Shown: positions 1 to 40,625 of the stretch, one piece after another | Layout of the letters: every line of letters starts with the position of its first letter | Position numbering within the stretch: the first letter of the stretch is position 1 | DNA from: an uncultured Anaerolineaceae bacterium | Lineage (GTDB): Bacteria; Chloroflexota; Anaerolineae; Anaerolineales; E44-bin32 | Assembly (NCBI GenBank): GCA_964569445.1 | Contig: CAZMVJ010000002.1 | Location: forward strand, 1-41,777 | Reading direction: 5' to 3' | Length of the DNA: 41,777 nucleotides | Translations under genes and position numbers: made by a program | Notes under the pieces: generated by a model | Told to the model about the DNA's origin: nothing | Databases searched by the model: none | The model's input: the letters and a program-made list of their open reading frames with translations, nothing else

Positions 1-1007
1 TGACGACTCACACCGTCCTGATCGCCACAGGCTCCTCACCTTACCGTCCACCCAACATCCCCTTCGATCTCGAGAGCGTCTACGATTCGGACGAGATCCT
101 GACCATGGCCCGGCTCCCCGAGTCGATGGCCGTCGTCGGCGGAGGCGTCGTCGGCTCGGAGTACGCGTGCATCTTCACCGCCCTGGGTGTCCACGTGACC
201 CTGATCGAGTCGAAACCCCGGCTGCTTCCCTTCGTCGATCGCGAGATCGCCGGCCGGCTGCAATCCCAGCTTGAAAAACTGGGGGTGAGGTTGCGCTTCT
301 CAGAACGGGTGAGGCAGATACAGGCGGAGAACCGCCGAGTGCAGCTGACGCTCGAGAGCGGCGACGTCGTCGAAACCGAGGTAGCGCTGTTCGCCGCCGG
401 GCGAGTGAGCAGTATTGAGGGCCTGGGGTTGGAACCGTTGGGGATCCAGACGGCGGAGCGCGGTCGGGTGGTCGTGAATGAGAAGTTCCAGACCGCCGTG
501 CCCAACGTCTACGCCGCCGGAGACGTGGTCGGCTTCCCCGGGCTGGCTGCCACCTCCATGGAACAGGCGCGTGTGGCGATGGTCCACGCGTTCGACTTGG
601 AGTACAAACAGCGCGTGTCGCCGATCCTCCCCTTCGCCATCTACACCATCCCAGAGATCTCCATGGTCGGCATGAGCGAGGAGGATTGCGCCGAGAAGGG
701 CATCCCGTATCTTGTGGGACGTTCGTACTACGAGCGCAACCCGCGCGGCCTGATTGTCGGCGACGAAACCGGCATGGTGAAGCTGGTGTTCTCGCCTCCC
801 GATAAGAGGCTTCTCGGTGCTCACCTCGTCGGGGAGCAGGCGTCGGAGTTGGTTCACATCGCGGCGCACGTCATGGCCCAGGACGGGACCATCGACGCCT
901 TCATCGACGCGGTCTACAACTACCCTTCCCTGTCCGACTCGTACAAGTATGCGGCGTACGACGGGCTTGCAAACCTGCAGGCATGGCGCAACCGCGGGAC
1001 GGGATAA
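1..1007 (+). CDS. sthA: Soluble pyridine nucleotide transhydrogenase-like flavoprotein (class I pyridine nucleotide-disulfide oxidoreductase). The 5' end is cut by the window edge.
   Basis: Frame 3 is open from nt 3. The translation TTHTVLIATGSSPYRPPNIPFD...VVGGGVVGSEYACIF...AAGDVVGFPGLA...YTIPEISMVG...NYPSLSDSYKYAA is collinear with the SthA/UdhA NAD-binding and dimerisation domains. Stop at 1005-1007. Confidence 0.8.
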   Translation, partial: TTHTVLIATGSSPYRPPNIPFDLESVYDSDEILTMARLPESMAVVGGGVVGSEYACIFTALGVHVTLIESKPRLLPFVDREIAGRLQSQLEKLGVRLRFSERVRQIQAENRRVQLTLESGDVVETEVALFAAGRVSSIEGLGLEPLGIQTAERGRVVVNEKFQTAVPNVYAAGDVVGFPGLAATSMEQARVAMVHAFDLEYKQRVSPILPFAIYTIPEISMVGMSEEDCAEKGIPYLVGRSYYERNPRGLIVGDETGMVKLVFSPPDKRLLGAHLVGEQASELVHIAAHVMAQDGTIDAFIDAVYNYPSLSDSYKYAAYDGLANLQAWRNRGTG

Positions 1008-1010
1008 GAG

Positions 1011-1384
1011 AAGGCATCCCGGCCTTCGATCTGCAAGCGGTCTCGCATCGTCTTGGTGCTGTCCTACAAAGCCCTTCAGCCCTCGGCCCTCTGTCGAAGT
1101 TGCCCTTCGCTGTCGGGCTGGGCCGGGCCGCCCGCGCCATCGTATTGCAGAACCTCGTCCTTTCGATCTCAGCCGTAGGCTTGCTGATCCTGGCGGCGCT
1201 GACAGGGGTGATAGGGATCGGCGCCGTCGTCGCCCACGAGAGCGTAACCCTCGTTGTGGTCTTCAACGCCCTGCGGCTGCTTGGCTATCGGGCCCAGCGA
1301 CATGAAAGGCGGCGGCGTACCCCGGCGTCGAATAGGTACTGTCTGACCTTTCTGACCTTGGAGGTTCTTCAGTGGACCTGTTGA
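1011..1384 (+). pseudogene. Orphan 3' remnant of a heavy-metal P1B-type ATPase (only the last transmembrane helices).
   Basis: ORF 983..1384 reads ...LSKLPFAVGLGRAARAIVLQNLVLSISAVGLLILAALTGVIGIGAVVAHESVTLVVVFNALRLL. This is the conserved C-terminal TM pair of CadA/ZntA/CopA-type pumps. No actuator, DKTGT or nucleotide-binding part precedes it, because sthA ends at 1007. Confidence 0.5.
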
Positions 1385-1707
1385 CTGCCTTCGGCGCGCT
1401 GGCCGTTACTGTCATGCTGGTGTCATACGCGCTCGAGTCCCGATCCATAACCTGGTTCTTTGTATTCGCACTCGGGTGCGCCGCCTCCTCGCTGTACGGC
1501 GCCCTGGCCGGCACGTGGCCTTTTGCGGTGGTGGAGGGTGTCTGGGTTGTCGTTGCCTTGAGACGCTGGTCCGCGCAACGCCGGGCGAAGTTCGCGGCCC
1601 AGCCCTCCGCTCGCCTCTCGGGTCCCTCGGCTAATGTGGCTTGGCCTTCGATCAGGCAAGATACTTTAAGTCTGTTGCCTGGCCCTAGAAGACGGTCAAG
1701 GGTCTAG
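1372..1707 (+). CDS. Small hydrophobic membrane protein (2-3 TM helices), function unknown.
   Basis: GTG-initiated ORF with the helices LLTAFGALAVTVMLVSYAL, WFFVFALGCAASSLYGAL and PFAVVEGVWVVVAL. The 3' tail runs into intergenic repeat copy A, so the true C-terminus is uncertain. Confidence 0.45.
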   Translation: MDLLTAFGALAVTVMLVSYALESRSITWFFVFALGCAASSLYGALAGTWPFAVVEGVWVVVALRRWSAQRRAKFAAQPSARLSGPSANVAWPSIRQDTLSLLPGPRRRSRV

Positions 1708-1840
1708 GTCCGGCAGGCAGCCCAGAATCAGTAGCCCCTTACACGGAATCCGGTGAAAGGCGAGCAGGGGTCCTAATCGCCGCTGCCGAGTCCTGCAAGA
1801 CCCTCATGCTTGGCTTCGTGTCCCACCGTCGCCTCCTCAA
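1674..1840 (+). repeat. Intergenic repeat / candidate structured RNA family, copy A.
   Basis: gttgcctggccctagaagacggtcaagggtctaggtccggcaggcagcccagaatcag...acggaatccggtgaaaggcgagca...tcccaccgtcgcc is nearly identical over about 95 nt to 25627-25725. It shares the distal tcccaccgtcgcc block with 25824-25836. Possible closing helices are GACGGU(1691-1696)/ACCGUC(1825-1830) and GGGUCU(1700-1705)/AGACCC(1798-1803). Confidence 0.7.
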
Positions 1841-26772: not shown

Positions 26773-27342
26773 CTAACACGCCAAGTCAGGCCCTCCGCGA
26801 AGGTCATTCAACCCTCGGATAAGGTAGTCGATGTCCGGCCGATCGCCCGGATCATGGCTCCGGTAGGCGAACCGCAGGATCCCTCTCCCGTCGACAATGA
26901 AATCCCCCCCGAGCTGGAGGCTGTCTCCCTGAATGCCGCGCCACGGTCGGCCCGCCAGCATGAGCCGGGCATAGGTCAGGATCGTGCGAGGGCTCCAGGA
27001 ACGAAAGAGCGAACGATCGACGCCACACTCCCGGTATGCCCTTCGTTCAGGATCAAGCCAGAGCGAAAACGGTGCAGCCGTTTCGCGAAGCCACTGCGCA
27101 GCCAATAACGGCGGCCCAAAGGACACCATCACAACACGGGCGCCCAGCGTGCGGAGCGTCGCTGCGTGGCGGCACAACTGTGCCACATGCTCCCGGCAGG
27201 GCAGTCAACCGAGGTGTCGCAGGAAGACGAGCAGCGCGGGGCCATCTTTCCACGCCTCCCTCAGATTCACGGCCCCACCTTCCTCCGTAACGAGCGTCGC
27301 ATCAGGCGCAACATGACCCGGTATCAACGTGGCGTGGGTCAT
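26773..27342 (-). CDS. Prx-like2 (AhpC/TSA_2) thioredoxin-fold protein with an in-frame UGA at 27205-27207. Candidate selenoprotein with a U-x-x-C redox centre.
   Basis: ORFs 27205..27435 and 26773..27186 share one frame and are separated by TGA plus 6 sense codons. The joined sequence reads ...ALLVFLRHLG-U-LPC-REHVAQL...LQLGGDFIVDGRG.... Start at MTHATLIP (27342). Confidence 0.7.
27166..27190 (-). promoter_or_regulatory. SECIS-like hairpin downstream of the UGA at 27205-27207.
   Basis: The mRNA forms GUGGCAC-AGUU-GUGCCGC (plus coordinates 27169-27186), 7 bp including one G-U pair. The apical loop starts 26 nt after the UGA and contains G and U. Confidence 0.55.
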
Positions 27343-27431
27343 CGGACGATTCTCATCGTCCGTACCTTGAGGCAATAACCCGTGCGTCCCAGGCCGGGGA
27401 CCCCCACACCCTGATGCCGGACAGGCGGGGA

Positions 27432-27740
27432 TCACGCATTCTTGAGCACCAGGGTCATCGCGGCATTGAGCCGGTGGAGCGCCTCATCCGTGTCCCCTGC
27501 CTTCACACAATCGGTCACGCACGTCTCCATGTGACCTTCCAAGAGCTTGATAATCACCTGGTTGAGCGCGGCCTTGATGGCGGAGGTTTGGACCAGGATG
27601 CTCTCACAGTCTTCCTTGTCGGCCAGCATGCGCTTCACACCCCGCACATGCCCCTCGATCCGATTCAATCGCCGGAAGAGATTCCCGATCAAGTCGGGAT
27701 CAAGGTAGGTTGTCTCAGATTGCGCACGAGCTTTGGGCAT
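27432..27740 (-). CDS. CsoR/RcnR/FrmR-family metal-sensing repressor with a CsoR-type x-C-H-C ligand set.
   Basis: NRIEGHVRGVKRML core. Cys in EDCESIL. His and Cys in EGHMETC. Confidence 0.9.
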   Translation of the reverse strand: MPKARAQSETTYLDPDLIGNLFRRLNRIEGHVRGVKRMLADKEDCESILVQTSAIKAALNQVIIKLLEGHMETCVTDCVKAGDTDEALHRLNAAMTLVLKNA

Positions 27741-27783: not shown

Positions 27784-29445
27784 CTATCCCGCACAGCAAC
27801 TCAGCTTGGTGATGTCTTTCTCGAACGCCAGGGCAGCCAGCTTGAGGCCCTCGGCATTGGTCAAATAGGGGAACATCGTCTCGCGTAAGTCGCCGAGACG
27901 GATCCCAAATCGCATCGCCAAGACGGCCGTCTGGATCGTCTCCCCGGCTTCGGGGGCGAGGATGTGCGCCCCGATCAGATGATCGGTTTGGGCGTCCGCG
28001 ATCAGTTTCACCATCCCGCGTGTGTCGCGCGCCGCCTGGGCGCGAGGCACATGCGCCATCGTCACCACGCTCGCCCGCACGTCACGTCCCTGCGCCCGGG
28101 CCTCCGCCTCGGTGAGGCCCGCCGAGGCCACCTGGGGATCGGTAAACGTGATCCGGGGGATATAGCTGGCGTCGTAGACCTTCCCGGCGCCGGTCAGGGC
28201 ATTGTCGGCGGCCAACTTCCCTCCGTAAGAGGCAACATACACGAACATGTCACGGCCCATCACATCGCCGGCGGCGTAGACGAGCGGATTGTGCGTCTGG
28301 AGGAGATCGTTCACCAAGATCTCGCCTCGCGGACCGAGGCGGACACCGGCCTCCTCCAGCCCCATGCCGGCGGTGTTCGCCCGCCGGCCGGTGGCGACCA
28401 GGAGCTGTTCCGCATCGAAGACGACCTCCGCCTCGTTCTTGAGGCCACGCAGCTCGTAGCGGCCGTCCCGCCGCACGACGCTTTCCGTCTTGAACCCCGC
28501 AACGATCCGTATCCCCTCGCCTTCGAGATACCCGGTCAGCGCCGCGCTAATTTCCTCGTCCTCAAAGGGCAAGATGCGTGGGAGGACCTCCAGCACCGTC
28601 ACATAGGTCCCCGCTCGCGCGTAGGTCTGCGCCAGTTCGAGCCCAACGGCATTTCCCCCCAGGACGATCATCGACTTCGGCAGCTCTCTGAGCTCAAGCG
28701 CCGAGGTGCTGTCCAGATAGCCAGCCTCGGCCAACCCTGGAATGGGCGGCGCCCACGGCTGGGCGCCGGTGGCGACGACGATCTTGCCTGGCGCGTAGGC
28801 TCGCCCGTCGACCTCGACCCCGTTTCCTCCGGTGAGGCGGGCGCGCCCCTCGATGTAGCTGATCTCGGGGTAAGCCGATAGGACGTCGATGTACTTCTCC
28901 TGGCGCATCTCGTTGACCAGTTCGTCCTTGTGGGCGATGACCTCGGGCCACGAAATCCGCCCTGGAACTGTGTGAACGCCACGAAAGCGGGCCTGACCCG
29001 CCCCATGCAACGTTTCCACTGCGCGGATGAGAGTCTTCGACGGAATGCACCCCACATTGACGCAGGTGCCGCCGATGATCCCGGAGCCCACCAGGGCCAC
29101 GCGTTTCCCGAGCTCCGCCCCCTTGATCGCCGCGGCGAAGCCGGCCGACCCCGCGCCAAGGATCATGAGGTCGTAGCGGTCATCGCCTGAAGGTGCTCGG
29201 TCTGGAGCTTGGGGGATCGCCTTGCGGGAACGCACACCGACGGTGTATCCACTCCCCTTCACGGCCGCCGCCAGTTCGTCCCCCTTCACCTGGCCCTCCG
29301 CCACAACGGTTGCGCGCCCGGACTTCCATCCGGGCACGGACACCTCTTTGACGCCGGCGACTTTGGCCAGGGCTTTCTCGACATGCAACGCGCATGAGTC
29401 GCACGTCATTCCGTGCACGTCCAGCTCGAACGTCTCCGATTCCAT
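27784..29445 (-). CDS. merA: Mercuric reductase with an N-terminal HMA (NmerA) domain.
   Basis: GMTCDSC metal-binding domain. Redox-active GGTCVNVGCIPSK. FAD and NAD folds. The hallmark C-terminal Cys pair KLSCCAG. Confidence 0.9.
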   Translation of the reverse strand: MESETFELDVHGMTCDSCALHVEKALAKVAGVKEVSVPGWKSGRATVVAEGQVKGDELAAAVKGSGYTVGVRSRKAIPQAPDRAPSGDDRYDLMILGAGSAGFAAAIKGAELGKRVALVGSGIIGGTCVNVGCIPSKTLIRAVETLHGAGQARFRGVHTVPGRISWPEVIAHKDELVNEMRQEKYIDVLSAYPEISYIEGRARLTGGNGVEVDGRAYAPGKIVVATGAQPWAPPIPGLAEAGYLDSTSALELRELPKSMIVLGGNAVGLELAQTYARAGTYVTVLEVLPRILPFEDEEISAALTGYLEGEGIRIVAGFKTESVVRRDGRYELRGLKNEAEVVFDAEQLLVATGRRANTAGMGLEEAGVRLGPRGEILVNDLLQTHNPLVYAAGDVMGRDMFVYVASYGGKLAADNALTGAGKVYDASYIPRITFTDPQVASAGLTEAEARAQGRDVRASVVTMAHVPRAQAARDTRGMVKLIADAQTDHLIGAHILAPEAGETIQTAVLAMRFGIRLGDLRETMFPYLTNAEGLKLAALAFEKDITKLSCCAG

Positions 29446-29502: not shown

Positions 29503-29530
29503 ATTTTACCAGCGTAGGCGCCCTTGTCAA
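29503..29530 (-). promoter_or_regulatory. Sigma-70-type promoter for the merA operon.
   Basis: The minus strand reads TTGACA (29530-29525), a 16-nt spacer ending in TGG, then TAAAAT (29508-29503). This gives an extended -10 of the TGnTAAAAT type. Confidence 0.6.
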
Positions 29531-30255: not shown

Positions 30256-32190
30256 TCACGCCACCTTGCGCAGGTAATCCCGAATCATGAGCGCCGCCGT
30301 GGCGCCCTCCCCTGCCGCCGAGGCTGCCTGCTTGGTGGATCCAGCGCGGACGTCCCCCACGGCGAACAGTCCTGGCAGAGAGCTCATCAGGCGAGCATCG
30401 GTGATGACGAACCCCATCGGATCGAGCTCGGCCCTGCCTCGCGCCAGGTCGTTGTTCGGCGAAAGGCCGATAAAGACAAAGACACCGTCGTAGTGCCACT
30501 CCTTGGTCTTCCCCGTCGCGCGGTCTTCCACGACGACCGCCTCCAGCCGGTTGCGGCCTTTGAAGGCCTTGACCGCATGATTGACGAACACCGACATCTC
30601 CGGCCTCTTGGCGACCTGCTCCTGCAGGAAGGCGCTCGCCTGGACGGTCGGGCCGAACTCGACGATGTCCACCTTGCGGGCGAACTTGGTAAGCATGAGG
30701 CCTTCCTGGAAGCCGCTGTTGCCTCCGCCGATCACGAGGACTTCTTTGCCTTTGTAGAAGGCGCCGTCGCACGTCGCACAGAAGTGGATATTCAGCCCCA
30801 CGAGATCATCCTCCCCGGGGACTCCCAGCTTGCGATAGCGAGCTCCGGTGGCAAGCAACGCAACCCTGGTCTGGAACAGGTCGCCCTTCCCGGTCGTCAC
30901 GCACAGGTACGGGCCGTCCGGGGAGATGTCGGCGACCTGCTGCGTTTGAAGGATCTCCACGCCGAAGCGACGGGCCTGGTGCGCCAGCCGCTCACCGAAC
31001 TCCACGCCGCCGACCCCTTCGTCGAATCCTGGGAAGTTGTCGATCCGCTGCGTGGCCCCCGCCTGGCCGCCCAGCCCTGCCTTCTCGATGACCAGGGCGT
31101 CGAGCCCTTCGCGCGCCAGGTACAAGGCGGCCGTCAAGCCCGCCGGTCCGGCGCCGATGACGACCGCGTCATAGAAACTCCGCTGAGCCTTCGTCTGCAG
31201 GCCGAGCTTCTCGGCCAGCTGGGCATTGCTTGGCTCGACCAGGATGTCGCCATCGGGAAAAACGATGGTCGGAATGCTCCGCATGCCGCGGTTGATCGCC
31301 TCCACGCGTGCCATCGCCTCGGGGTCCTGTTCGATGTCGATGTTCGTGTAGGATACGCGTTGCTCCCCGAGGAACCGCTTGGCGCGCTTGCAGTCCGGGC
31401 ACCAGGTCGTGCTATAGACGATGATCTCCTTTGGGGCCATGCCGCTCTGCTCGGTCATCCTCCCGCGCTCCTGCGAATCCGCCAAGCGGATGATGGAACC
31501 GCTGGCGAAAGGATTCCCGACTTCGATGCCGAGATCTCGATAGACCTCGTGGGGAATGCCGATGTCCGCCAGGTATATCTCTCCTACATGGGCGGCTGCC
31601 TGCGGAGCCCGCAGGCCTGTCTTCGGAAGCGCCAGGGTCAGCGTGGCGGTGGCGTGGACGCAAGGCTTCGACGGGATGCCGGTCGTCGCATCCAGGCCGG
31701 AGGGCAGGTCGAGGGCGAGGACGGGGCAACCTTGGCTGTTCGCCCATTCGATCCAGCGCGCCGCCCTCGGGCGCGGCCTCCCGCGGAAACCGTATCCGAA
31801 GATGACATCGATCACCATGTCGGGCCTTCCAGATCCGGGGCCGCCCTTCGGGCGCACGGCAAGGCCAAGCCGCCTCAGGATCCGCCACTGTCGCTTGGGG
31901 ACGGCCTTCAAGGCAGCTTCCGAGCCGGTCAACACCACCTGAACCCGGGCGCCCCAGGCATAGAGGTTGCGCGCCGCCACCATCCCGCCGCCTCCGTTGT
32001 TTCCGGTTCCGCACAGGACCACGATCTCCCGCCCCTCGACGGAACCCCCCGACATCTCTCTCGCCAGGGTGGCCAGGTTCCGGCCAGCGAGCTCCATCAT
32101 CTGGATCAGTCCAATCCCATAACCTTGGATTGCACGCCGATCGACCTGCGCCATCTGAGCCGCCGTCACTGCCGGAATAGGAGCGGTCAT
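30256..32190 (-). CDS. Three-domain fusion: YjeF_N NAD(P)HX epimerase + glutaredoxin/NrdH-like domain + thioredoxin reductase.
   Basis: aa 1-240: VVLCGTGNNGGGG and DVIFGYGF (YjeF_N). About aa 255-335: IIVYSTTWCPDCKRAKRFL (CPxC Trx fold). About aa 340-644: VVIGAGPAGLTAALY, redox CATCDG, VIGGGNSGFQEG, GLFAVGD (TrxB). Confidence 0.85.
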   Translation of the reverse strand: MTAPIPAVTAAQMAQVDRRAIQGYGIGLIQMMELAGRNLATLAREMSGGSVEGREIVVLCGTGNNGGGGMVAARNLYAWGARVQVVLTGSEAALKAVPKRQWRILRRLGLAVRPKGGPGSGRPDMVIDVIFGYGFRGRPRPRAARWIEWANSQGCPVLALDLPSGLDATTGIPSKPCVHATATLTLALPKTGLRAPQAAAHVGEIYLADIGIPHEVYRDLGIEVGNPFASGSIIRLADSQERGRMTEQSGMAPKEIIVYSTTWCPDCKRAKRFLGEQRVSYTNIDIEQDPEAMARVEAINRGMRSIPTIVFPDGDILVEPSNAQLAEKLGLQTKAQRSFYDAVVIGAGPAGLTAALYLAREGLDALVIEKAGLGGQAGATQRIDNFPGFDEGVGGVEFGERLAHQARRFGVEILQTQQVADISPDGPYLCVTTGKGDLFQTRVALLATGARYRKLGVPGEDDLVGLNIHFCATCDGAFYKGKEVLVIGGGNSGFQEGLMLTKFARKVDIVEFGPTVQASAFLQEQVAKRPEMSVFVNHAVKAFKGRNRLEAVVVEDRATGKTKEWHYDGVFVFIGLSPNNDLARGRAELDPMGFVITDARLMSSLPGLFAVGDVRAGSTKQAASAAGEGATAALMIRDYLRKVA

Positions 32191-32845: not shown

Positions 32846-33199
32846 TCAAGCGGCACGCGCCGCTGTGGCCTCCCGCGAGACGATCTCCTCCAGGTTGTGG
32901 AGGATGTGGGGCTTCGGCGCGAACCCGACGATGCGCCCGGCCTCCTTGCCCTGGGAGAACACGATCAGGGTGGGGATTCCCTCGACGCCGTACCGGACGG
33001 AGAGGTCCGAGTTCTCATCGACATTCACCTTGGCGAAGGACATTCGGCCCTCCAGCTCTCCCGCGAGCTGATCCAGGACCGGCGCCATCATGTGGCACGG
33101 GCCGCACCACTCGGCCCAGAAATCCACCACCACGGGCTGGGCCGCCTGAAGCACCTGATTCTCGAAATCCTTTGTCGATACATGCAAAGGGGTTGCCAT
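32846..33199 (-). CDS. trxA: Thioredoxin.
   Basis: VVVDFWAEWCGPCHMMAP and GIPTLIVF. Confidence 0.95.
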   Translation of the reverse strand: MATPLHVSTKDFENQVLQAAQPVVVDFWAEWCGPCHMMAPVLDQLAGELEGRMSFAKVNVDENSDLSVRYGVEGIPTLIVFSQGKEAGRIVGFAPKPHILHNLEEIVSREATAARAA

Positions 33200-36162: not shown

Positions 36163-37368
36163 ATGATTCCTTCGCCCGCCCTCACCGCCACCGTCGTTGG
36201 CTCGCTTGTGCTCGCCGCCTGCGCCGCGGCACAAGGGACGTCGAGCGAGACTCCGTCGCCGCCTGCGACTCCTGCGGCCAACACAGCGGTCGCCTTCGCC
36301 ACTTCGACGCGTGAGGCCCCGCCCCCCTCCGGCGCGGAGGCCGAGTTCATCACCGATTTCAGCCGCCACACGATCGACTACGCCGAAATCCTCTCCGGTG
36401 GTCCGCCCAAGGATGGGATTCCGGCCGTGGACGACCCGCAATTCATCTCCGTCGAGGAAGCCGGCGGCTGGCTTCAGGCGCAGGAACCTGTGATCTTCTT
36501 GCGGCTCGGCGATGATGCGCGCGCCTACCCGCTGCAGATCCTGATCTGGCACGAGATCGTCAACGATGTCGTCGATGGCCGGCCGGTCCTGGTCACGTTC
36601 TGTCCCCTGTGCAACACGGCCATCGCCTTCGAGAGAACCGTGGACGGGCGCGTGCTCGACTTCGGCACGACCGGACGCCTGCGCTACAGCAACCTGATCA
36701 TGTACGATCGCCAGACCGAGACCTGGTGGCAGCAGGCCAACGGCGAGGCGATCGCCGGGGAGCTGACAGGCACCCGGCTCGAGTTCCTTCCGGCCGCCAT
36801 TATCTCGTGGGGGGTTTTCCAGGAGGCCTACCCGGAGGGACGGGTCCTGTCGACCGAGACCGGAACCGTCCGTGCGTACGGGCAGAATCCCTACGTCGGC
36901 TACGACGATGTCAGCAATTCACCCTTCCTCTACCGCGGGCCGGAAACACCAGGCCAGCTCCGTCCGATGACACGCGTCCTCGCCATAGAGCGTAACGGGG
37001 ATGTCGTCGCCTTCCCCTACGGCACGCTGGAAGAGCTGCATGTCGTCAATGAGTCGGTCGGCGACGAGGATGTCGTCGTGTTGTGGGAGACGGGGACGGC
37101 CTCGGCGCTCGATTCCAGCGGGATCGCCTTCGGCCGGGATGTGGGGTCGGCCAATGCGTTTTCCCGGCTGGTCGACGGCGACAGCCTGACCTTTGCCTTC
37201 GATGGATCGGACTTTGTCGACGAGGGGACGGGCAGTCGATGGACCATCTTGGGCGAGGCAACCGACGGGCCGCTGGCCGGTCGGCGGCTTGACCCAATCG
37301 TCGCCGTCAACCATTTCTGGTTCTCCTGGGTGGCCTTCCAGCCCGAGACACGGGTCTACCTGCCCTGA
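36163..37368 (+). CDS. DUF3179-family lipoprotein.
   Basis: Lipobox LVLAAC. GGPPKDGIPAVDDP...AYPLQILIWHEIVND...VTFCPLCNTAIAFER...YSNLIMYDRQTETWWQQ. Confidence 0.8.
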   Translation: MIPSPALTATVVGSLVLAACAAAQGTSSETPSPPATPAANTAVAFATSTREAPPPSGAEAEFITDFSRHTIDYAEILSGGPPKDGIPAVDDPQFISVEEAGGWLQAQEPVIFLRLGDDARAYPLQILIWHEIVNDVVDGRPVLVTFCPLCNTAIAFERTVDGRVLDFGTTGRLRYSNLIMYDRQTETWWQQANGEAIAGELTGTRLEFLPAAIISWGVFQEAYPEGRVLSTETGTVRAYGQNPYVGYDDVSNSPFLYRGPETPGQLRPMTRVLAIERNGDVVAFPYGTLEELHVVNESVGDEDVVVLWETGTASALDSSGIAFGRDVGSANAFSRLVDGDSLTFAFDGSDFVDEGTGSRWTILGEATDGPLAGRRLDPIVAVNHFWFSWVAFQPETRVYLP

Positions 37369-40262: not shown

Positions 40263-40625
40263 TTAGAAGACCAGGACCTGGTCCGCCTCGAGAGTCCACT
40301 CGGCCAGCAAGTCCATGCTTCCGGTCCTTACGCCTTCGACAAACCGCTCAGGCTCGAGCCCGCGAGCCTCTTGACAAGTCCCTCAAGTCGCTACTTCCCC
40401 ACGCTGGGCGACGGACTTCAGCATCCGCTCGATGTTGTAGTAGCCCGTTGGTGTCTTCTGCCCGGCGATGGCGCAGTTGACCGCATCGGCCATGAGGAAG
40501 ACTCGTACCTTCGCCGACCTCTTGATCAGGGCCAGAGCGAGGCGAAGGGCGTTGTAGGGACGCTCACTCCCATAGGGGGCATCATTGATGACCAGGAGAA
40601 ACTGCTTGCTTGCATGTTCGTTCAT
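40263..40625 (-). CDS. DsrE-like protein with an in-frame UGA at 40383-40385. Candidate selenoprotein (U-G-T-C in place of C-G-T-C).
   Basis: The ORF track stops at ...VAQRGEVAT. Reading through gives U-GTCQEARGLEPERFVEGVRTGSMDLLAEWTLEADQVLVF and a TAA at 40263-40265. This restores the full-length DsrE fold and its active-site motif. Confidence 0.7.
40350..40369 (-). promoter_or_regulatory. SECIS-like hairpin downstream of the UGA at 40383-40385.
   Basis: The mRNA forms AGGCUCG-CGGGCU-CGAGCCU (7 bp). The apical loop starts 20 nt after the UGA and is G-rich. Confidence 0.55.

Follow-up and report, generated by a model that had tools for sequence, protein, structure and literature searches.

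The window studied here, i.e. the whole stretch of 41,777 nt of contig CAZMVJ010000002.1 from an uncultured Anaerolineaceae bacterium, carries on its minus strand (27342..26773) what is very probably (probability of about 0.92) a single gene encoding a selenoprotein. Its product would be a SelL-related thioredoxin-fold oxidoreductase of 189 residues (Prx-like2, AhpC-TSA_2) in which codon 46, a UGA, is read as selenocysteine (Sec). This reading is carried by the continuity of the gene across the UGA, by the family and the fold of the protein, by the Sec/Cys column of the family, and by the conservation, with covariation, of a hairpin of the selenocysteine insertion sequence (SECIS) type just downstream.

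One reading frame across an internal UGA

From an ATG at 27342..27340 to a TAG at 26775..26773, the minus strand holds one frame of 189 codons, whose sole internal stop is the TGA at 27207..27205. The two open reading frames (ORFs) listed for this region, 27205..27435(-) and 26773..27186(-), belong to this same frame, separated by no more than the TGA plus six sense codons (CTG CCC TGC CGG GAG CAT). A preliminary description of this DNA had already proposed that the two ORFs share a frame split in this way; its coordinates and codons match ours, and the joined peptide that it gave, ...GPALLVFLRHLG-U-LPC-REHVAQLCRH..., reads exactly so (in a longer form, ALLVFLRHLG-U-LPC-REHVAQLCRH). The N-terminus that follows from the ATG, MTHATLIPGHVAPDATL, matches the starts of full-length homologues (alignment A1), and the gene calls of JGI and Logan begin a 45-residue fragment at this same codon. 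The joined protein, with X at residue 46, has no record in the protein collection that was looked up.

Two other assemblies, a JGI metagenome contig (3300010391; 99.9% identical over 4.7 kb) and the Logan assembly of SRR12685320, contain the 570-nt gene without any difference. The TGA is unchanged in both and is therefore no assembly error, which answers the question, raised beforehand, of whether resequencing would alter it. Upstream, a perfect 7-bp inverted repeat (GGACGAT-GAGA-ATCGTCC, 27344..27361, minus strand) ends 1 nt before the ATG and could occlude the ribosome-binding region or serve as an operator.

The UGA column in relatives

We scanned one genome per GTDB species, which yielded 380 relatives, and fetched the best 80 loci. 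Nearly all of these come from metagenome-assembled genomes of Chloroflexota/Anaerolineae, and they show 43-62% identity to the window protein. A TGA stands at the exact column of residue 46 in 80 of these 80 loci, with the coding sequence conserved on both flanks; the tblastn matches cover residues about 5-185 and cross the stop. In the protein database, the members of the family are mostly truncations of 126-147 aa; in those that were aligned, the first residue is at the UGA column or shortly after it. Two entries that NCBI names ‘SelL-related redox protein’, P0016 (MFC2029706.1) and P0042 (MFP3854841.1), are of this kind: they are 139-140 aa long, start with M-P-C-R-E/D-H and begin directly after the UGA column, so the curated name sits on protein models without the Sec residue.

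Full-length homologues in the database read FLRHLG-C-LPCREH, a few of them with W at the UGA column (alignment A1); Cys is found there in P0009, P0011, P0014, P0018, P0026 and others. For seven homologues with a sense codon at this column, the DNA was also fetched: the codon is TGC in four (L086, L087, L088 and L089), TGT in two (L081 and L084) and TGG in one (L083). The expectation that a Cys of homologues would align with the UGA is thus borne out by the protein alignment and by the TGT and TGC codons in the DNA. Two relatives carry a second TGA three codons after the first, which gives a U-x-x-U motif: TGA CTG CCC TGA in L026 (3139-3150) and TGA CTG CAC TGA in L047 (3115-3126). In both loci a single downstream hairpin puts the two UGAs within a spacing of 16-37 nt, and the U-x-x-U motif is like that of eukaryotic SelL.

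A SECIS hairpin conserved beyond the coding constraint

Bacterial SECIS elements lie inside the ORF, just after the UGA; eukaryotic ones lie in the 3' untranslated region. In the window, a hairpin follows the UGA, with a 5' arm GUGGCAC (27186..27180), a loop AGUU (27179..27176) and a 3' arm GUGCCGC (27175..27169). The stem is of 7 bp, the loop of 4 nt has G second and U third, and the minimum free energy (MFE) is -10.8 kcal/mol. The spacing from the UGA to the loop is 25 nt, the loop beginning at the 26th nt, as the preliminary description had it for this same hairpin. The bacterial SECIS (bSECIS) model, as given in a 2026 review (PMC13188914), comprises a loop of 3-9 nt with G in position 1 or 2, a stem of 4-16 bp, a UGA-to-loop spacing of 16-37 nt and an MFE <= -7.5 kcal/mol, and the window hairpin lies within every one of these limits.

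Covariation was scored on the 7-bp helix in codon-aligned DNA of the window and 63 loci, i.e. 64 sequences (alignment A2). The five inner pairs are essentially always paired (about 100%), and compensatory changes occur at three pairs: 30-43 (GC 44, CG 15), 33-40 (AU 42, GC 20, GU 2, unpaired 0) and 31-42 (GC 46, GU 15, AU 3). In pair 33-40, a third codon position that is synonymous (Ala GCA/GCG) is coupled to a first position whose change turns Cys (UGC) into Arg (CGC). The covariation score and the percentage of paired cells were as high as observed in none of 500 shuffles, and slid registers of the helix all score much worse. The AGUU loop and the closing pair are invariant. Codon choice in the loop follows the same pattern: Leu is encoded by UUG in 63 of 63 genes, vs. 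19% of the Leu codons elsewhere in these genes, and Gln by CAG in 63 of 63, vs. 47% elsewhere. A subfamily of 17 loci with the peptide VAQVV keeps the hairpin in a shifted register, with the loop AGGUU.

The homologues without the UGA add to this picture. The hairpin is absent from the four TGC homologues and retained in the two TGT homologues (L081, at 3124, and L084, at 431) and in the TGG homologue (L083, at 212), L084 having lost the G of the loop (AAUU). In the TGT and TGG homologues it looks like a fossil SECIS left after a recent loss of Sec; the homologue with Trp may have no activity, or its TGG may be a sequencing variant in one contig. The hairpin is therefore conserved beyond the coding constraint in the Sec forms and dispensable in the Cys forms, these being few independent events. 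A SECIS prediction on this segment had been suggested as a check, and both the published bacterial limits and the covariation in 64 sequences agree with it: judged from these sequence comparisons, the hairpin is the predicted SECIS of the gene.

Protein family and fold

The joined protein was searched with Cys in place of the stop. It scores 159.9 bits on the NCBIfam model NF040769 ‘SelL-related redox protein’ (cut-off of 120; model positions 2-170 of 173), and its Pfam matches are AhpC-TSA (51.6 bits), AhpC-TSA_2 (PF13911; 48.9 bits vs. a cut-off of 27) and Redoxin. The earlier assignment to the Prx-like2 / AhpC-TSA_2 thioredoxin-fold proteins stands on these scores. With the NF040769 family the window protein shares the conserved block FLRHLG-[U/C]-LPCREH, the length and the fold, and nothing of substance differs; the window copy is a Sec form and sits after merA and csoR.

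An AlphaFold model made from 24 homologues has a thioredoxin fold, with a predicted local distance difference test (pLDDT) of 91.2 and a predicted template modelling score (pTM) of 0.88. The model puts residue 46 after strand 36-40 and before helix 48-58, at the N-terminus of helix alpha1, where thioredoxin-fold proteins classically have their CxxC motif. The nearest PDB structure is human prostamide/prostaglandin F synthase (PGFS/PRXL2B; 9us9, 9usa), both by sequence (E = 6.6e-10) and by fold (template modelling scores of 0.70/0.80, 26% identity), followed for the fold by the peroxiredoxins Bcp and AhpE. The catalytic C44-x-x-C47 of PRXL2B (GCVVCR in 9us9) is aligned to U46-x-x-C49. PRXL2B differs in having Cys instead of Sec and in being a eukaryotic enzyme with a lipid endoperoxide substrate. 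The likeness to canonical peroxiredoxins (AhpC, BCP/PrxQ, AhpE) consists of the overall fold, the Pfam AhpC-TSA match and the structural matches to Bcp and AhpE. Their peroxidatic signature P-x-x-x-[T/S]-x-x-C is however absent: the residues before U46 are V-F-L-R-H-L-G, with Val at -7 (no Pro) and His at -3 (no Thr/Ser), and a CxxC-like motif is found instead. The protein is therefore filed as Prx-like and not as a peroxiredoxin proper.

Prx-like thiol:disulfide oxidoreductases with a UxxC motif are, according to three papers (PMC1794560, PMC2398784, PMC13188914), long-established predicted bacterial selenoproteins, in agreement with the preliminary description, which had called Prx-like thiol:disulfide oxidoreductases a reported bacterial selenoprotein family. 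Occasional UxxU forms and a kinship to eukaryotic SelL are also noted for them in the literature. The families that Zhang and Gladyshev named ‘Prx-like thiol:disulfide oxidoreductase’ and ‘Prx-like 1-3’ are likewise thioredoxin-fold and PF00578-related proteins, with UxxC or sometimes UxxU, and with a predicted bSECIS right after the UGA; NF040769 resembles them by description. Few or no Chloroflexi members are given for the Prx-like families in these papers. Eukaryotic SelL (SELENOL) is described as Prx-like and as bearing a diselenide motif, U-x-x-U (cited in PMC2398784 from Shchedrina et al. 2007). By this description it resembles the window protein in being a thioredoxin-fold Prx-like protein with Sec as the first residue of the x-x motif at the N-terminus of a helix, and the bacterial family is named after it. 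It differs in its U-x-x-U, vs. the U-x-x-C of the window protein, which would form a selenenylsulfide; the U-x-x-U form does occur in the relatives L026 and L047.

Alternatives to a selenoprotein

The two fragments might instead be two products, a 45-residue peptide ending at the UGA and an independent 137-residue protein translated from the GTG at 27186, which is the first start in the second fragment. The gene calls of databases, including the NCBI ‘SelL-related redox protein’ entries, are such truncations, and a GGGAG lies 3 nt before this GTG. The preliminary description had taken the GTG, lying inside the hairpin, for the only start available to the second fragment, and one with no Shine-Dalgarno sequence. 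Its place inside the hairpin is right; the fragment however has additional GTG and ATG codons further inside, and the absence of a Shine-Dalgarno sequence is not strictly true because of the GGGAG. This GGGAG derives from Arg-Glu codons, is poorly spaced and is not conserved, the relatives reading CGC GAG instead. Moreover, the GTG is buried in a conserved hairpin and all relatives conserve the protein sequence of the 45 codons before the UGA, the tblastn matches running across the stop. The downstream fragment alone reaches only 99 bits on NF040769, below the cut-off, and by the model it would have neither strand 36-40 nor the catalytic residue of the fold. Independent translation of two products is thus very improbable.

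A read-through of the UGA without Sec, either by a variant code (UGA as Trp or Gly) or by near-cognate insertion of Cys or Trp, could be suggested by the database homologues with W at the UGA column. The one that was checked (L083) has a real TGG, with the hairpin kept, so in this sole case checked the W is not the product of a translation with code 4, and we rejected that explanation of it. In the window, TGA is the commonest ordinary stop, found at the end of 11 of 18 confident genes, among them the neighbouring csoR-like gene and the thioredoxin gene; therefore, the organism has no UGA-sense code. Homologues have Cys at this column, as part of a CxxC redox motif, and this is the Sec/Cys signature in its classical form; downstream, there is a conserved SECIS-type hairpin whose loop contains a G and is invariant. 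Read-through of this kind hence appears highly unlikely.

A pseudogene or an assembly error, i.e. a Cys codon (TGC/TGT) mutated or misread to TGA, is the least likely alternative and is barely credible: TGA is one base from TGT, TGC and TGG, relatives with TGT and TGG at the column exist and gene callers split the gene, but the TGA is present in all 80 species-level relatives with intact flanking frames, the gene is identical in the two other assemblies, and a constraint on the downstream hairpin at the nucleotide level makes no sense in a dead gene.

Weighing the selenocysteine reading

Several observations weigh against Sec decoding of this gene. No selA, selB or selD was found among the about 38 ORFs of the window annotated with Pfam/NCBIfam. 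Scans for transfer RNA (tRNA) genes detected none of any kind in the window, and loci L001-L060 likewise gave no tRNA-Sec. Nor did a Pfam census of the flanks of the gene in the 80 relatives (138 ORFs) reveal any Sec machinery. As regards the hairpin, a 71-nt stretch is not more stable than its shuffles (z = +0.70), and stability alone cannot support a SECIS; it is the comparison with relatives, and not thermodynamics, that gives the hairpin its significance. In the Rfam scan of the whole window no family reached its gathering score, and there is thus no curated SECIS model that applies. The CG variant at pair 30-43 goes together with the I-P-C subclade; hence, the compensatory changes probably go back to a small number of independent events, and the shuffle statistics overstate independence. 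Finally, the hairpin overlaps the strongly conserved peptide HVAQLC, and part of its conservation is thus due to the protein.

A second gene of the window points in the other direction. A DsrE-like gene (40263..40625, minus strand) contains an in-frame UGA at 40385..40383; when joined, its product has 120 residues and spans positions 1-116 of 116 of Pfam PF02635 (DsrE). The UGA aligns with an invariant Cys (A-T-C-G-T-C) of full-length homologues, which argues for Sec decoding in this genome. Close relatives of this gene are called as 80-residue truncations. A 6-bp hairpin (GGCUCG-CGGGCU-CGAGCC) begins 14 nt after the UGA, and the ATG overlaps the stop of an ArsR-type regulator gene (ATGA). DsrE-like UxxC proteins are a reported selenoprotein family, and this is, from its sequence, a second probable selenoprotein gene.

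Two further sites of this kind were considered. The DUF3179 protein of the window (36163..37368, plus strand) reads VTF-C-PLC; in L083 (about 835..1752), next to the SelL-related gene, the DUF3179 frame reads VTW-UGA-PLC and is called as two fragments. DUF3179 proteins may therefore have Sec forms, the window carrying a Cys form. An in-frame TGA at 32846..32848, between a thioredoxin ORF and a membrane-protein ORF, was rejected as a candidate and is an ordinary stop: the thioredoxin has a normal end, and the ORF that follows has a start of its own.

If the SelL-related gene is decoded by the established bacterial pathway, a ribosome standing on the UGA would leave the hairpin (27186..27169) just outside the mRNA channel, where its AGUU loop would be presented to SelB-GTP-Sec-tRNA(Sec). 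SelB would then deliver Sec in competition with release factor 2. In the resulting enzyme, Sec46, at the N-terminus of helix alpha1 and in the U-x-x-C motif, would be the attacking nucleophile and would form a selenenylsulfide with Cys49 after the reduction of a disulfide or peroxide substrate. The enzyme would be re-reduced by a thioredoxin-type or a flavoprotein disulfide-reductase system.

Genomic neighbourhood

The gene order on the minus strand is merA, the gene for a CsoR-type repressor and the selenoprotein gene (Table 1). The merA product has an N-terminal HMA domain, Pyr_redox_2 and a C-terminal CCAG, and scores 544.5 bits on TIGR02053 (cut-off of 454.45); an exact look-up of this protein returned no record. 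merA is the probable first gene of a transcription unit, and no convincing terminator was found between it and the selenoprotein gene, which would probably be co-transcribed with merA and the repressor gene as part of a metal and redox stress cluster. L094-L096, which represent the nearest lineage (72% identity), have the same order and also the TGA and the hairpin. No merR, merP or merT is apparent in the cluster, and a CsoR-family regulator is found in MerR's place.

Table 1. Positions of the selenoprotein gene, its elements and the upstream features in the window
Feature	Position	Strand	Evidence
Complete selenoprotein gene	26773..27342	-	189 codons including the UGA, plus TAG; NF040769, Pfam, model, PGFS/PRXL2B fold match
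Start codon ATG	27340..27342	-	Homologue starts; JGI/Logan gene calls
In-frame UGA, predicted Sec, residue 46	27205..27207	-	TGA in 80/80 loci; Cys in other homologues; identical in two other assemblies
Redox motif U46-L-P-C49 (UGA CUG CCC UGC)	27196..27207	-	Aligns with CxxC (GCVVCR) of 9us9
Predicted SECIS hairpin GUGGCAC-AGUU-GUGCCGC	27169..27186	-	MFE, bSECIS criteria, covariation, loop codons
CsoR/RcnR-type metal-sensing repressor	27432..27740	-	PF02583, 83.5 bits; 89 nt upstream of selenoprotein gene
Mercury(II) reductase MerA	27784..29445	-	TIGR02053, HMA + Pyr_redox_2, C-terminal Cys pair
Promoter-like site TTGACA-16-TAAAAT	29503..29530	-	Consensus match only, 11/12, with TG; upstream of merA

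Among the 80 loci from GTDB genomes, a true CC-tailed MerA was seen only in L025. A MerA-like disulfide reductase is encoded within 3 kb in 18 of them, and the C-terminal Cys pair is absent in 11 of the 12 that were inspected. The Pfam census of the flanking ORFs showed that the neighbourhood is not conserved and has no universal partner: the most frequent neighbours are CDP-alcohol phosphatidyltransferase, with 22 ORFs, and then YdjM, with 12, and thioredoxin, DUF547 and DUF3179 are sporadic. A functional link to mercury or copper stress is thus possible in this lineage and is not a property of the family.

In eight loci (L005, L011, L012, L013, L015, L024, L028 and L035), a class-I flavoprotein disulfide reductase adjoins the SelL-related gene, mostly directly downstream and on the same strand. 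The active site of this enzyme is GGDCTWTGCVPSK. Lacking the C-terminal Cys pair, the enzyme is not a MerA, and in these loci it is a candidate dedicated reductase. As a general partner of the family, a flavoprotein disulfide reductase was rejected, since it lies directly downstream in only about 8-9 of the 80 loci.

A more specific proposal is that the selenoprotein is a working part of a non-canonical mercury-resistance unit, merA-csoR-selL, which would be transcribed from the promoter-like site at 29530..29503 and is conserved in the nearest lineage. We consider this very unlikely. If it were so, the selenolate/thiolate pair could capture Hg(II) and pass it to the N- or C-terminal cysteines of MerA or, alternatively, it could repair thiols damaged by Hg or Cu. 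In either role, selenium would serve an accessory function in metal detoxification, and no such function is described for Prx-like2 proteins.

Elsewhere in the window, a gene at 30256..32190 (minus strand) encodes a 644-aa three-part fusion of YjeF_N (NAD(P)H-hydrate epimerase), glutaredoxin and thioredoxin reductase. Its glutaredoxin part has a weak, sub-threshold match to the ‘Uxx-star glutaredoxin-like (seleno)protein’ family, and a thioredoxin gene (32849..33199) lies just upstream of the fusion gene.

Significance

The family itself is already known and is curated by NCBI as ‘SelL-related redox protein’, and the current understanding of Sec decoding and of Prx-like2 proteins is unchanged by this gene. 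What this analysis contributes is the Sec form in all 80 sampled relatives, a SECIS consensus with covariation, and the finding that members named by NCBI are annotated in truncated form. The matter is mainly one of annotation: gene callers split or truncate the gene, here and in most of its database relatives, so that the protein models lack the catalytic residue and the 45 residues before it. Such annotations could be repaired with the help of the in-ORF SECIS, a well-defined stem with an AGUU loop, about 25 nt after the UGA. In the 80 Chloroflexota species sampled, the family is, on the evidence of the conserved UGA, a selenoprotein without exception and, together with the DsrE-like gene, the selenoprotein gene of the window marks its organism as a probable selenium user.

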